Below, piece after piece: positions 45,001-51,000 of a DNA stretch of 64,000 nucleotides. The position numbers were made by a program. Source of the DNA: Treponemataceae bacterium (GTDB taxonomy: Bacteria > Spirochaetota > Spirochaetia > Treponematales > Rectinemataceae); NCBI GenBank assembly GCA_963678065.2, contig CAXXVZ010000003.1, positions 2,304,001 through 2,368,000 on the forward strand, in the 5' to 3' direction. Numbering within the stretch: position 1 is the stretch's first letter; every line of letters starts with the position of its first letter.

Positions 45001-48000
45001 ATTTCTCGAATTCTCCACAAATTCTCTAATACATCTATTGACGGCCTTCTTCTAATGCATTTAGATTAATACTACAGAACAGTGGTGGATATACCACAAA
45101 GGAGCGTTTATGAGAAAAGTAGGTTTGTTGGTTCTCTTGGTTGCGGCCATCGCTGTCATCCCGGTTGCGGCGACTCCAGTCAAAACAGCATCTGCGACGA
45201 TCAAGCTCTATGGCAGTGTTTATTACAGTGCTATAGTTTACTCTGATTGGGCCGAGACAACTCTCATCGATCTTACCAAAGCAGAGGATGAGTTGAAGGT
45301 TACTGGCATTGGTGTGACCACAAATTTCCCGGGAACGTGGTATCTTTGGATGAAATCTACGAGCGCCCAGGAAGGATCTTTGGTTAAATCTGGTTCGGCA
45401 CCATCTCTGACTACCGCAATTCCTTATACAGTAAGCATCGGTGATGTGACTTACAAGTCTTTGGCGCCGTGGGGTGGTGGTTATGATTCTTCATTTGGAT
45501 ACAAGGTCTTGACCCACACTGGATCAGTCACTGATACGGTTTACAACATGTTCGTCACACATACTTCTGGTTCTGCTGGCAATATTCTGGAAGAAGGAAC
45601 CTACAGAGACAACGTAGTTGTTACTCTTGCGCTCGGCTCCTGAGTAACCGTAATTTGTAAAAGGCAACCGTGTAATGCGGTTGCCTTTTTTTTATCAGTC
45701 GCCGGTTCTATTGACTCGCGGGCGGGGATATGTAGAATTTAATAAATGCCTAACCAGGGGGATACCAATGCGCATATCAACAAAATGTCTGTTTTCACTT
45801 TTTTTTATGATAAGTACATCGATGCTTGCGTCCGCATTCTCAATTACCCCGATGAGTATAACGGTGACGCCGACAGCTCCCGGAAATTTGGCAAATTTCA
45901 AAATCGAGAATGAATCGACCGCCCCTATCGCTGTCGTTATCAGGGTGGCAACAAGAACAGTCGATGTGGACGGAAATGAAAAAAATGATCCTGTGACCAA
46001 AGAATTTGTTGTATTCCCCGCAAGAGTGGTCGTCCAACCAAATTCTTCGCAGGCGGTCAAAGTACAATGGAAAGGTCCGGCGACTATTCCCTCCGAGCTC
46101 GCATACAGGCTGGTCGCGGAGCAAGTTCCTGTGGACTTTACCAAAGACCAGACATCTGGGGTCAAGGTCTTGTTCCGGTATCTCGCCACGATGTACGTAG
46201 CGCCGAGCGGTATTGTCGCGCGCACCAAGCTTGAGAGCGTGACGGGATCTATGCGGAACGGGAATCCTGGATTGCTGGTGAGGATCAAAAATGATGGAAC
46301 CCGGCATGGACTTCTTTTCTCGCCCATTCTCAGGATCAAGGCGCCGGGGCAGAACCAGCAGCTTGAATTCGCGGGCAAATTACTGGAATCAATCGAGGGA
46401 ATGAACATACTCGCGCTTTCGACGCGGATTTTTTTCGTGCCTTGGGCCCAGGCCGTCGACGGAACTCAATATGAGGGCACATTCAGTGCCTCGATTGAAT
46501 AAGAGGTTTATGCCGGCAAGGCTGAATTCTTTCAAAACATTTGTACTTATTCTGGCCTTCTTTGTAGTTTCAGTCTTCTCCGGTTTTTCCGATGAACTCC
46601 TCCAGAAAAAACTGACGGGCGAGATTGATCCTGCCCCCGAAGAACTGGGGCTTGTGACCCTCGTGGTCGACGGGGCGACTGTCGGAGATATCGAGGTTAT
46701 ATTTACAGAGAACAAGTACTTCCTTTCGCTGCAAAAACTCGATTCCATCCTTGTGGATTACATGGCTCCCGGATTCCACAGCGAGGTTTTCCGGACAAAA
46801 CTCAAGGCATATCGGTGGGTCGGAAGCGCAGAATTGAGCGCGGCGGGACTCTCGGTAATGGAAGATTCCAATTCCTTAAGTTTTTTTCTGGTTGTTCCGC
46901 CTTCCAAACGCCCCGTAAACGATATCAGGATTTCTCAGACCACATACAACAGCATCAAACCGATCCTCCTGCCTTCACCATTCTCCGCGATTCTGAACAC
47001 CGAACTGCAGGCCGGCCTGGACTTCTCTGTTTCGGGATCTTATGTCCCGATATCCTGGCTCTTTGACCTTTCCCTGAACATTTCAGACTGGGTACTCGAA
47101 GCAAATGGCCGTGTATCGTTTTATCGGGATCTGACGGCCGCATTGCAAATGCTTCGCTTTGTACGCGACATCGGTCCTCTGGGGGCGCGGCTCTATGGAG
47201 GAATGGTTACTTCCACTTCGTTGGGATATCAGCAATCGTCCAGTCTCTACGGTCTCACACTCGACAGCTACAATTTCGTGCCAGGAAGGCGGCCCGCCAA
47301 CGCGCCTGTTTCCCAGTTTGTGCTTGAAAAAAAATCCATCGTCAGGATTATCCTCAATGGAACTATCCTCCTCACTCTCGACCTCGACCCGGGAACCTAC
47401 GATGTCGGACAATTCGACTTTGCTCCCGGCATCAATGACTTCGTAATAGAGATAGAAACGCCTGGGGAAAAAAAACAACGCATCCATGCGGTCGTCTCGA
47501 GGGAGGACGTGCTTCTCGGAAAAGATATGGTCGAGTTCTCAGCATCTGCGGGGGTCGGAAGAACCAATCTCGGGGAAATATTCGGCTCGACCTTTTACCG
47601 CAGAGGCTTGGCGGATGTCTTAACCGCCGGAGGGGCCATCCAATTCGGAAAATACTCAGGGTTGGCAGGAATTACCGCCGTCTATGCGAGCCCCATCGGA
47701 GCTATCACCCTCAACGCGGCGAACATGCTCGCCTGGGATGGTCGTCTGGCCCAGGCCGCAAACTTGAAGTACAAACTCACATTTCCCGGTCGTTCGAGCG
47801 CGCCATCATTTGGCCTCGATTTCGAGATCCGGACCAAGGATTTCGAGGCTCCACGAATCGGGACCCTTCCAACCTACCCCGAGGGCACTTTCTCAGTCAC
47901 GGCCCAGGCTTCCGGCCGTCTTTCCTCGGATTCTTTTATCGGAATATCAGGAACTTACTCCCGCCAGTACACTGGTACAGTACAGGACACAGTATCGTCC

Positions 48001-51000
48001 AGCCTCTCCTTCAGCACGAATCTTCGTCCAGGGTACTCTCTCCTCTTGTCTGGAGGTACCAGTCAAACTTTAGGTGAAGCGCTTACGGCGACAGCCAGCA
48101 TCCGCCTCAGTATCAATCCCCAGGGCGGAAACCAGCTTTTCAACTTTACCCAATCGTTGAACGGAGAAAATTCAGTCAGTATCGCCAATACTGGCGCAGA
48201 GAACGGAATCGTGGCATCCTTCCAAGGAGACAATCTCCTGGGAACTAGCGCCAATCCAGCTAATGTCACAATAAGCGCACGGAAGACTACCGCGCTGGCA
48301 GATTTTGCAGGAAACCTGGATCTCCAGTACGGAAATGCCGAAGTTCTGGGGCTCTCGACTCAGGCAACTCTGTCCGCATCGACCGGTTTCGTATTCGTCA
48401 ACGGAACCTTCGGCATGGCGAGGAGAATCTCTGATTCCTTCATGATTTTCGCCCCGCCGCAGACCCTCAGCCGCGAGAGGATCGATGTCAGGAACGATTC
48501 CGGACAGACCGGCTCCAGCATTGGCGGCTCCGTCGTCGTACTGCCTCTGACCTCCTATCGTTCGGGATTGGTCAGCCTCAACCTGCCCGAGTCAGACCCC
48601 AATATTGTCCTGAAAACAACGACGGCGACCGTGTCGCCGCGATACAAGTCCGGCATTTTCTTTACCACGGACATCGTCCGGAGCCATGCCATTTCGGCCA
48701 CCCTCGTCGACAAGGCAGGAGCCCCTCTCGGCTACATCATGGCGGAGGTTTTCAACGAGATGGGCGAATCTGTCTCGTCGACTTTCACCGACGAGAACGG
48801 CTATTTTGAGTTGTATGACCTGTTGGGCGGCATCTACACCATACGCTGGCCTCTGGACCTGGGGGTCACCTATTTCGAAATTCCGGAGGACTCTCCCAAG
48901 GATCTGACCTTGGGTACGATATCGCCTTCAGTTCCCGGGCAAGAAGGACCGCAATGAAAAAGAAGTTGCTTGTTATGCTTCTCATCTTCCTCGCTATCCT
49001 CACGGCGCAGGCTCAGACAATATCGTACACATCCCTGACATCGTATATTTCCGGTGATTATGATTTTTATTCCGAAGCGCCGCTTCCGGTTGAGGCGAAG
49101 ATCAGCATAACCGGCATGAAAAGTTCGACCTATCCATACTATCTCACGGTGGAGCCGGCAATCGGCGCCCGATATCTTTCCAGGTTCGGGAGCGGCTACT
49201 ATTTGCCGTATACGGTGTACACGACGCCCTCCGCTCCGCGCAACGAGCTCTACGACTATGCGGGTGCCTCGAGCACTTCGCAGGTGATCACGGGAGAGTT
49301 CTCGAAAGCGGCTTACGGGGGGTCTTCATCAGCCTCGGACTACAATGACATGTATTTCGTCGCGACGCCCGGAACGCTAGTCCCCGCGGGAATTTACTCG
49401 GGCACATTCTCGGTTCGGCTCTACAGGAAGGCGTTCAAGAATGCCACCACGCCGCTGACAAAATCCGTTCAGGTGTACATGAATGTTCCCATTTACACTG
49501 AACTCAGTGTGGTGCCCACGGGCGGGATATTCGACTCCGCGGCAAAATCGGCATCAATGAACTTCGGAGAGATGGTCGAAGGCGCCTCGCTCAGCCTCGA
49601 CGTGCTGGCAAAATCGAACGCCAGCTACTCCATAGCGATCACCTCGACCAAGGGAGGAAAGCTCACGCAGAATCCGGACACGGGCCAGTACGTTCCGTAC
49701 ACGCTAAAATTCGCGGGAGCCGCTCTCGCTTTGAAACAGGGAGTGGCCGTGCCCGCCGTGAGCTATGCCGCCTGGACATCCGGCAACGTCGCGCGGTACA
49801 CGCTGGAAGTCATCATAGGGACTCACGATATTCTGGATCAGGGCTACTATTCGGACAACCTCATGTTCACCATCAGCGGGAACTGAAACGGCATGTGCGC
49901 GAAGCTTCGTGAGAGCTTCAGCTCGCATCTCTCGGGCAGATCAGCGCGCAAAGAGGGGCTTGAGATCACCGAATGACGTGCGGTCGGGGCACTCCCGGTA
50001 CATTCTGATTCCATTTTACTGGGGCGCTGTCGATGATCACGCTGGGGTTACTGGTTCTTGCGAAGCGGTTCGAGAAGCAGAGAGGCGAACCTGTCGCAGG
50101 TCGCGTAGCAGATGATGCCGTTTTCCGGCCAGGAACAGTGTGGCCGCAGCCTTGTATGGGTCGTCCAGGCAGGCTATCGCCAAGATATCCAACCCTTCCC
50201 TCTTCAGTTCGGCAGTCCTACTGCCTTCCATGTAAGGAACGAGATCTTTGCTCGTCGCTTGTCGGGAGGCACCCTCTGGTCATAGGTCCCCGACAGACGG
50301 GAAAGACAACATTCGCGAAATCGATCATGGCTTCACGAAATTGCATTTCGCGCATGTCGGGTTTGAAGGTTCGTTTTTGTTGTCGCATACTGGGCAAATC
50401 CACTGGCCAGCCGCGTTTACCCATATCTTGCGTGTAATATTGGGCTGTTCCTGAAGTATTTGTTTCTTGACAGACTCTTTGTAAACTATTGGCTTCACTG
50501 CTGGTTGTTCCAGTTCTTCTTCCATTGGTTCAGGCTTCGAAGGCACCATATGTTCGCGGATCACGGTGAGTGTTTTACTGAGTTGGGTGATTCCTCTCTG
50601 GCAACGATAGAGCCAGACGAATGAACAGATACCGAGAATGATTCCAATGCCAGCCGTCACTATAGCAACTACAAACTGTATCGAAGCGATGTTTTCCATG
50701 AGTCGATCCTTATGTGCACAGAATAATACTCATTCGAGTTTTGTATGCATGCACTTCAGTCGGTCTTTGTCATTTCGTCAGCACTGGTGGATTGCAATTC
50801 TTGCATGGTCCATACCCTCGGCTGACCGCCTCCGAGAGTGTGATCTCAATCTTCGATTTTCTGAGCGAGGAGCAACCATCACGATGGTACTTTTCTCCGG
50901 TCTTCGTTATATAGACGATAGTGCTCCCACAGACTGCAAAGACAAAGCCCGCGACAATAAGCAGCATCAGGATGATGGAGATGCGCTTTTTCATGATGAG

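Follow-up and report, generated by a model that had tools for sequence, protein, structure and literature searches.

The window, i.e., the whole 64,000-nucleotide stretch of spirochaete DNA analysed here, encodes a chaperone-usher pilus machine of the non-classical type, an assignment that is well supported, and this machine forms a separate, apparently undescribed branch of the non-classical chaperone-usher pili. The account that we regard as very probable when taken whole predicts that its four genes build a thin adhesive surface fibre, likely for attachment, that unlinked pilins share its one usher and chaperone, that a DUF4402 operon is a separate system, and that the machine dates far back in spirochaetes and has been retained mainly where flagella were lost. 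Digesters, sludge, and guts commonly harbour spirochaetes that have no flagellin, and attachment of these bacteria without the usual motility of the phylum now has named candidate genes (with Rectinema and Sphaerochaeta in culture). The initial annotation had considered chaperone-usher pili undescribed from Spirochaetota; we likewise found no description from a spirochaete in print, the published range of the non-classical type being proteobacteria, cyanobacteria, and Deinococcota (PMC4654587, PMC10104325).

Organization of the operon

The pilin, chaperone, usher, and two-domain adhesin genes that had been annotated at this locus are four intact ORFs on the same strand (Table 1), and recomputing the reported domain matches gave E 5.5e-9 for PapD_N and 6.3e-9 for Usher. 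Sigma-70-like sites occur at chance number (5 found versus 4.5 expected), so that only position speaks for the candidate promoter, and no sigma-54 site was found in the 410 nt upstream of the pilin gene (in a control, 2 of 26 upstream regions had such a site, both from flagellated genera). The hairpin after the pilin gene would favour the pilin message over that of the assembly genes. Three RNA runs, which we do not count as evidence of expression, contained 5-12% of the operon's words. Their contigs, which cannot show transcription, include two from run X3, one of 151 nt and one of 325 nt that spans the start of the pilin gene (45089-45413), as well as scattered short pieces, none of them on the pilin, from runs X1 and X2.

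Table 1. Features of the chaperone-usher locus and its upstream neighbours (positions in the window)
Feature	Position	Strand	Remarks
Integrase	42124-43329		adjoins IS110 transposase
tRNA-Val	43411-43486		adjoins IS110 transposase
IS110 transposase (context only)	43708..44643	+	upstream of promoter candidate
Sigma-70-like promoter candidate, TTGACG-18 nt-TAGATT	45038..45067	+	just 5' of pilin
Pilin, 177 aa	45110..45643	+	ORF, model, profile; no Cys; signal peptide by inspection
Hairpin, 14 pairs, then T run	45659..45697	+	3' of pilin gene
Periplasmic chaperone	45675..46502	+	likely start 45768, mature from 45837; PapD_N match
Outer-membrane usher	46471..48957	+	likely start 46510; Usher match and model
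Two-domain tip subunit, 310 aa	48954..49886	+	residues 164-309 are a pilin-family domain

Chaperone, usher, and subunits

Conserved residues of the chaperone are Pro61, Arg91, His157, and Asn190. The invariant proline (Pro61) is present in 95 of 95 homologues and the PapD_N match is over the cut-off, as expected of a PapD-like chaperone. Arg91 is kept in 94 of the 95, aligns with Arg89 of CsuC and EcpB and Arg90 of CfaA on strand F1, and also lies in a predicted subunit interface (see below); anchor arginine and invariant proline have been named as diagnostic residues (PMC4654587). The domain-2 pair of tyrosine and arginine (Tyr196/Arg174 in CsuC, Tyr169/Arg148 in EcpB) is absent: the Tyr196 column holds Asn in 86/95 homologues but Tyr in 5/5 sigma references and both EcpB sequences, and the Arg174 column holds L, I, V, or M in 92/95. 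Since these anchors are not kept, the binding chemistry proposed below is inferred. His157 was ruled out as a CfaA-like marker because three of the five sigma references have His in the same column. Against solved chaperones, a wide profile matched only CsuC (2e-8), CfaA (2e-4), and EcpB (9e-4), and a narrow profile matched none.

The usher model (pLDDT 85) aligns with full-length FimD (Foldseek E 1.7e-36, TM 0.67; Z 23.5, rmsd 6.8, 714 aligned) over residues 17-781, which points to the N-terminal domain, barrel, plug, and C-terminal domains of a complete usher. It is the only usher of its clade in this genome, which also has BamA, and groups with ushers of other family members (support 99). 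In the usher tree, the new sequences cluster on a single branch (96 SH-aLRT) that is distinct from the 4 sigma and 3 alpha references; the sigma and the alpha group each have a branch of their own (99 in both cases, with only 4-5 sigma references), so that the window usher lies inside neither clade. The best tree joins the new branch with the alpha references (97), but a placement next to sigma is also compatible with the data (AU p 0.175).

The pilin model (pLDDT 83) suggests an incomplete Ig fold with a free N-terminal donor segment, residues 1-19 being unstructured, as in subunits of the chaperone-usher pathway. Its best fold matches are modest (Z under 9), with Z 8.2-8.7 for CfaB, CfaE, and CS17 and 7.9-8.0 for CsuE and CsuA/B. 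The sequence has no Pfam match (including SCPU), and the last 135 residues of 93/110 pilins are free of cysteine, i.e., there is no conserved disulfide. This pilin family is large (4671 clusters at E 0.001), the best weak matches of its profile are CupE1, CsuA/B, and CsuE, and a pilin profile built without the tip subunit recognizes residues 164-309 of the latter at E 3.6e-11. Two other candidates for the closest characterised fibre were set aside: TLP-1, of which TLP-1b reaches Z 8.4 against the pilin model but assembles in n+4 fashion (PMC11494351), and cyanobacterial CT pili, whose pilin has another fold (PMC12397347).

Unlinked pilins and the DUF4402 operon

Two orphan pilins reported at C3:1488749-1490727 were both borne out, but their number was too low, as a third lies at C4:573212-573787; all three belong to the pilin family of the main operon, and single-sequence searches of the genome found no paralogues. 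A predicted complex of the chaperone with one orphan pilin scored 0.76 versus 0.27 for the best control (the score mark is reached by 116/157 solved pairs and 2/215 mismatched pairs), with contacts agreeing to at least 95% between runs and a partner pLDDT of at least 87; this score may show likeness only because like complexes have already been solved. The predicted interface comprises the G1 strand, which would pair with the last strand of the subunit, Arg91, and residues 187-190.

The DUF4402 operon is a different and rarer system than the one in the window. Its known pilin match was recomputed at E 3.1e-12, and a second DUF4402 gene missing from the initial annotation matched at E 2.1e-23. 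The insertion said to part pilin and chaperone instead splits the chaperone gene itself 116 nt past the ATG, as a 3877-bp nested element composed of an IS630 with IS3 and IS110 within it. Because its chaperone gene is interrupted, this operon is not the working fimbrial system in this genome that it had been taken for; an intact counterpart exists in genome G048.

Distribution among spirochaetes

Of the 68 other genomes of the family, 36 encode an usher, a share similar to the 21 of 40 given before, and the chaperone gene lies directly upstream in 33 of these 36 loci, while the remaining three contigs end at the usher. Two chaperones, as in the doubled pilin-chaperone pairs noted before, occur in 5 loci. 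Two broader claims of the initial annotation failed: the family is not flagellum-less, flagellin being present in 29 of the 68 genomes in an all-or-none manner by genus, and the system is not restricted to the family, given that the chaperone appears in 6/400 other phylum genomes. The chaperone is also found in many non-spirochaetes, and loci ordered pilin-chaperone-usher-tip are seen again both in diverse spirochaetes and in other phyla. As a phylum-wide probe, the Pfam Usher profile alone was too blunt (4/401 found, none over the cut-off) and our own profiles were used instead.

Within the family, the usher is present in 30/39 flagellin-less versus 6/29 flagellated genomes and a pilin-family gene in 39/39 versus 7/29; usher-positive genomes have a median of 7 pilin-profile matches, tip domains included, when flagellin-less (30 genomes) and 2 when flagellated (6 genomes). 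A second flagellin-less family, f12 (likely Sphaerochaetaceae; flagellin in 1/151), has the chaperone in 116/151 genomes, so that carriage is about 77% in both large flagellin-less groups compared with 3/395 flagellated spirochaetes in a phylum sample weighted towards other classes. Complete operons in flagellated spirochaetes were seen in 6 family genomes, G278, and G385; conversely, neither usher nor chaperone was found in nine flagellin-less family genomes, 35/151 of f12, and both genomes of family f7, many of them incomplete. On an RpoB tree with 41 of 69 family genomes (two partial), flagellin status changes only twice, leaving 1-2 independent pairs and therefore no test within the family. 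The enrichment in two separate flagellin-less groups is strong, but the independent events are few (two or three losses).

In f12, the chaperone and usher genes stand as a pair, which in 6/11 loci directly precedes an operon for a V/A-type ATPase (identified by its translations). Only 1/11 of these loci has pilin-like genes alongside, and the ushers are longer by 140-400 N-terminal residues. The pilin profile matched 41/51 f12 genomes, a count that we did not use because many weak matches cover the signal-peptide region only.

Proposed mechanism and alternative explanations

We infer that the subunits cross the inner membrane via their signal peptides. Residues 105-118 of the chaperone, its G1 strand, would then be lent to the last strand of the subunit, whose C-terminus is predicted to be held by Asn190 together with Arg91. 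Entry into the usher would begin with the two-domain subunit, which becomes the fibre tip; pilins would follow through the barrel of the usher, polymerising by donor-strand exchange, and the three unlinked pilins likely use the same single usher and chaperone. As about three quarters of genomes in the flagellin-less groups and few flagellated ones carry the machine, which appears old in spirochaetes and kept mostly where flagella were lost, it likely supports an attached lifestyle.

The subunits might instead be exported as a non-fibrous coat or envelope layer, perhaps stabilising round flagellum-less cells, which we think unlikely. Non-fimbrial products are possible for chaperone-usher systems according to PMC4390875, and the pilin-poor two-gene units and lengthened ushers of f12 would suit such a layer, but a two-domain tip and donor-type pilins, the layout of tipped fibres, are retained in the window and, outside f12, in most relatives. 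An origin of the operon as inactive cargo of an island or as a contaminant of the bin seems very improbable to us: the adjoining mobile elements and tRNA gene, a GC content of 0.52 versus 0.59 for the contig, and a bin contamination of 6.7% would fit this origin, yet all four frames are intact, the 2.4-Mb contig also bears the family rpoB, the usher clusters with its counterparts in family members, and near-identical DNA is present in other public runs.

It is also quite conceivable, though not what we would expect, that the pili are real and their enrichment is an accident of shared ancestry or habitat rather than a consequence of flagellum loss, in line with the small number of losses, the flagellated carriers, and f7, which has neither pilus machine nor flagella. 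Such an accident sits less well with the similar carriage in both groups against its rarity in flagellated relatives and with the larger pilin sets of flagellin-less genomes; moreover, a tree with the ushers of the two groups as a single clade is rejected (AU p 0.018), so that one recent transfer is not the source. Returning to pili linked to flagellum loss, we tentatively combine these observations into a third non-classical branch with its own Arg/Asn anchor and disulfide-free pilins, an appendage kept by spirochaetes giving up periplasmic flagella that became near-core in two unrelated flagellin-less lineages, its pilins having left the operon for several loci that share one usher, with the f12 usher extension perhaps forming a tether across the periplasm.

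Comparison with known systems

Archaic (sigma) pili such as Acinetobacter Csu (CsuA/B-C-D-E) and Pseudomonas CupE share the order pilin-chaperone-usher-tip in the operons compared, and CsuC is the best solved match of the window chaperone, with anchor arginine and invariant proline in common. Archaic pilins have a conserved disulfide (PMC4654587, PMC10104325) and build a zigzag rod with an A'-A'' hairpin clinch (PMC9452303). The window pilin has neither an SCPU match nor such a disulfide; the chaperone has Asn in place of Tyr196 and a hydrophobic residue in place of Arg174, and the ushers branch apart. Alternate (alpha) pili (ETEC CFA/I, CS1 class 5, E. coli ECP) include the nearest pilin folds, tied with Csu within 1 Z, and likewise have a single two-domain tip subunit and the anchor arginine. 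However, the class-5 operons compared are chaperone-first while that of the window is pilin-first, CfaA and EcpB match more weakly than CsuC, the domain-2 tyrosine is missing, and the usher branch is separate. The large pilin family and altered chaperone anchor offer material for structural work. For subunit genes apart from the usher gene, Synechocystis CccS/CccP with Slr0019 provides a precedent (PMC4390875); there, CccS has an SCPU domain and the chaperone gene accompanies that of the subunit. In the present genome, the pilin has no SCPU match and the chaperone stays with the usher while several pilin loci are dispersed.

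An intact chaperone-usher operon of a separate branch

The pilin, chaperone, usher and tip subunit genes proposed in the initial annotation were found as four intact open reading frames on one strand. The PapD_N profile matches the second (E 5.5e-9) and the Usher profile the third (E 6.3e-9), and neither the first nor the fourth has an over-cut-off match in Pfam or NCBIfam. Folded with AlphaFold (pLDDT 85), the usher matches the full-length structures of FimD and PapC (E 1.7e-36), with a structural alignment of Z 23.5 and rmsd 6.8 over 714 aligned residues. The pilin model (pLDDT 83) leaves its N-terminal segment free, and its best matches (CfaB, CfaE, CS17 and Csu subunits) lie within one Z unit of each other. 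In the fourth protein, the C-terminal half forms a domain of the window pilin's family (E 3.6e-11). A profile of 95 chaperone sequences hits CsuC (2e-8), CfaA (2e-4) and EcpB (9e-4) but none of the classical chaperones. The usher's closest named homologues are labeled Rectinemataceae, and the family's rpoB lies on the same contig. The pilin profile's C-terminal half also matches 7–8 repeats in two proteins of 1600–1800 aa (P0167, P0191).

The machine is real, intact and of a known kind, forming a separate branch in a phylum for which we found no earlier description. Specifically, no published account of chaperone-usher pili in spirochaetes was found in the literature searched, which covered few subscription journals, where species descriptions might show fibres. 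We propose that subunits would be exported and held by an Arg/Asn anchor on the chaperone, that pilins would assemble by donor-strand exchange with the two-domain subunit at the tip, and that the fibre would serve adhesion.

Positions of operon genes and other features
Feature	Location	Strand	Remarks
Pilin gene	window 45110-45643		
Chaperone gene	window 45675-46502		
Usher gene	window 46471-48957		
Two-domain putative tip subunit gene	window 48954-49886		
Promoter candidate	before pilin gene		sigma-70-like; such sites no commoner than in shuffled sequence
Hairpin	after pilin gene		14 pairs
Phage-like element	window 38201-43486		capsid protein, DUF3631 protein, tyrosine integrase; integrated at tRNA-Val
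151-aa ORF, two identical copies	window 54285-54740 and 57510-57965		flank integrase/transposase-like pair
Second operon	behind two-component pair		two DUF4402 pilins, chaperone, 893-aa usher-like gene, HD-domain gene
Third orphan pilin gene (L189)	C4:573212-573787		
GNAT acetyltransferase gene	L002:6299-6997	opposite	between two orphan pilins
Flagellar export and MS-ring genes (L267, L268)	G000:C3:1,177,700-1,192,700	minus	open frames; sigma-28-like gene included

The DUF4402 operon had been taken for a second working fimbrial system split between pilin and chaperone, but the 3877-bp IS630 element (with nested IS3 and IS110) lies inside the chaperone gene, 116 nt past the ATG, and parts its signal-peptide portion from the remainder. 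This operon is therefore broken here, though an uninterrupted counterpart exists in a relative (G048), and it is rare: among 68 other family genomes, DUF4402 was found in two, and in one of them it contains stops. The literature searched yielded no mention of DUF4402.

Dispersed pilins

Starting from the tip subunit, an iterative search recovered the window pilin and both previously noted orphan pilins, and a third orphan exists. In this genome the clade is represented by a single usher and a single chaperone, and this one usher would be shared by the dispersed pilins. The predicted complex of the window chaperone with an orphan pilin scored 0.76 (best control 0.27) against a mark reached by 116/157 solved and 2/215 mismatched pairs, with contact agreement of at least 95%, partner pLDDT of at least 87 and an interface that includes the G1 strand, Arg91 and residues 187–190. 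This predicted pairing may only mirror likeness to solved complexes because similar ones have already been solved. Dispersal of pilins away from the usher locus is common: in the genus g17, 12 of 13 usher loci lack a pilin in the 3–7 kb read upstream, and all 13 genomes hold 3–7 pilin-profile matches, several in separate clusters. The third orphan belongs to a solitary pilin subfamily (with L191 and L200-L202) that also occurs in flagellin-less genomes without a detected usher.

Distribution and flagellum loss

The usher was found in 36 of 68 other family genomes, with the chaperone immediately upstream in 33 of these and doubled in 5. Beyond the family, the chaperone occurs in 6 of 400 genomes sampled across the phylum, and homologues carry source names such as Spirochaeta africana, S. 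dissipatitropha and Alkalispirochaeta. Among the 76 loci listed of 182 matching genome-contig stretches, labels include Thiotrichaceae, Bacteriovoracaceae, Verrucomicrobiota, Myxococcota and alpha- and gammaproteobacteria, with gene order mostly conserved; plasmid records add Leptolyngbya and Sphingomonadales. Many homologues are already annotated as fimbrial chaperone or usher by NCBI and JGI.

The family had been described as flagellum-less, yet flagellin and FliP occur in the same 29 of 68 other genomes, all or none per genus. With many genomes incomplete, 30/39 flagellin-less versus 6/29 flagellin-bearing members carry the usher, and 39/39 versus 7/29 a pilin-family gene. Beyond the family, two genomes (G278, G385) have the full four-gene operon plus flagellin. 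In the phylum sample, which is weighted to other classes, flagellin is absent from 5 of 400 genomes: three belong to family f12 and all carry the chaperone, whereas the two f7 genomes lack it. Of the 395 flagellated genomes, 3 carry the chaperone. Within f12, the chaperone is present in 116/151 genomes and a flagellin fragment in 1/151; this family is likely Sphaerochaetaceae by sequence, since its closest named homologues (76–78% identity) are labeled Sphaerochaeta or Sphaerochaetaceae. A single clade for the ushers of both flagellin-less groups is rejected (AU p 0.018), and an RpoB tree of 41 family genomes has just two changes of flagellin status, leaving one or two independent pairs. A causal tie between the machine and flagellum loss would be conjectural.

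Several f12 loci (L074, L204, L205, L289-L296) encode ushers of 1050–1250 aa with an N-terminal extension of 140–400 residues that begins with a hydrophobic segment (10 scored). At 6 of 11 loci the chaperone-usher pair lies immediately 5' of a V/A-type ATPase operon, and one locus has seven divergent pilin-like genes in a row. In two flagellated Rectinemataceae (L060, L063), a sigma-54-type site lies 48 and 60 nt 5' of the first pilin.

Profile searches of the present genome for flagellin, rod/hook proteins and MotA gave no match, and FliF, FliG (matching in its N and M domains only), FliH, FliI, FliO, FliP, FliR, FlhB, FlhA and FlhF are retained. Such a set suggests that flagella were lost separately and less completely here; among 40 flagellin-less family genomes, FliP is found in this one alone. 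The retained genes, among which lies a 503-aa ORF without Pfam match, can be read as a relic or as a non-flagellar export machine.

Relation to Csu and CFA/I pili

What this system adds is enrichment in flagellin-less lineages, dispersed pilins and an altered anchor, though the usher survey of Nuccio and Baumler (2007) may already contain members of the branch. In an usher tree, 17 members group together (96), away from four sigma (99) and three alpha (99) references, and either alpha or sigma may be the sister of this branch (AU p 0.175). A wider tree spans 60 sequences; branches are long and the tree search was a quick one. According to PMC4654587, Arg89 characterises non-classical chaperones more than any other residue, and Tyr196 and Arg174 complete the anchor. 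Here the Arg is kept as Arg91 in 94/95 homologues, whereas the Tyr196 column is Asn in 86/95 and the Arg174 column is hydrophobic. In addition, 93 of 110 pilins lack Cys in their last 135 residues, unlike CsuA/B and CupE1 as described in PMC4654587 and PMC10104325. The machine is predicted to work like Csu and CFA/I, yet with these anchor columns, the Cys-poor pilins and the separate usher branch it belongs, as tested, to neither.
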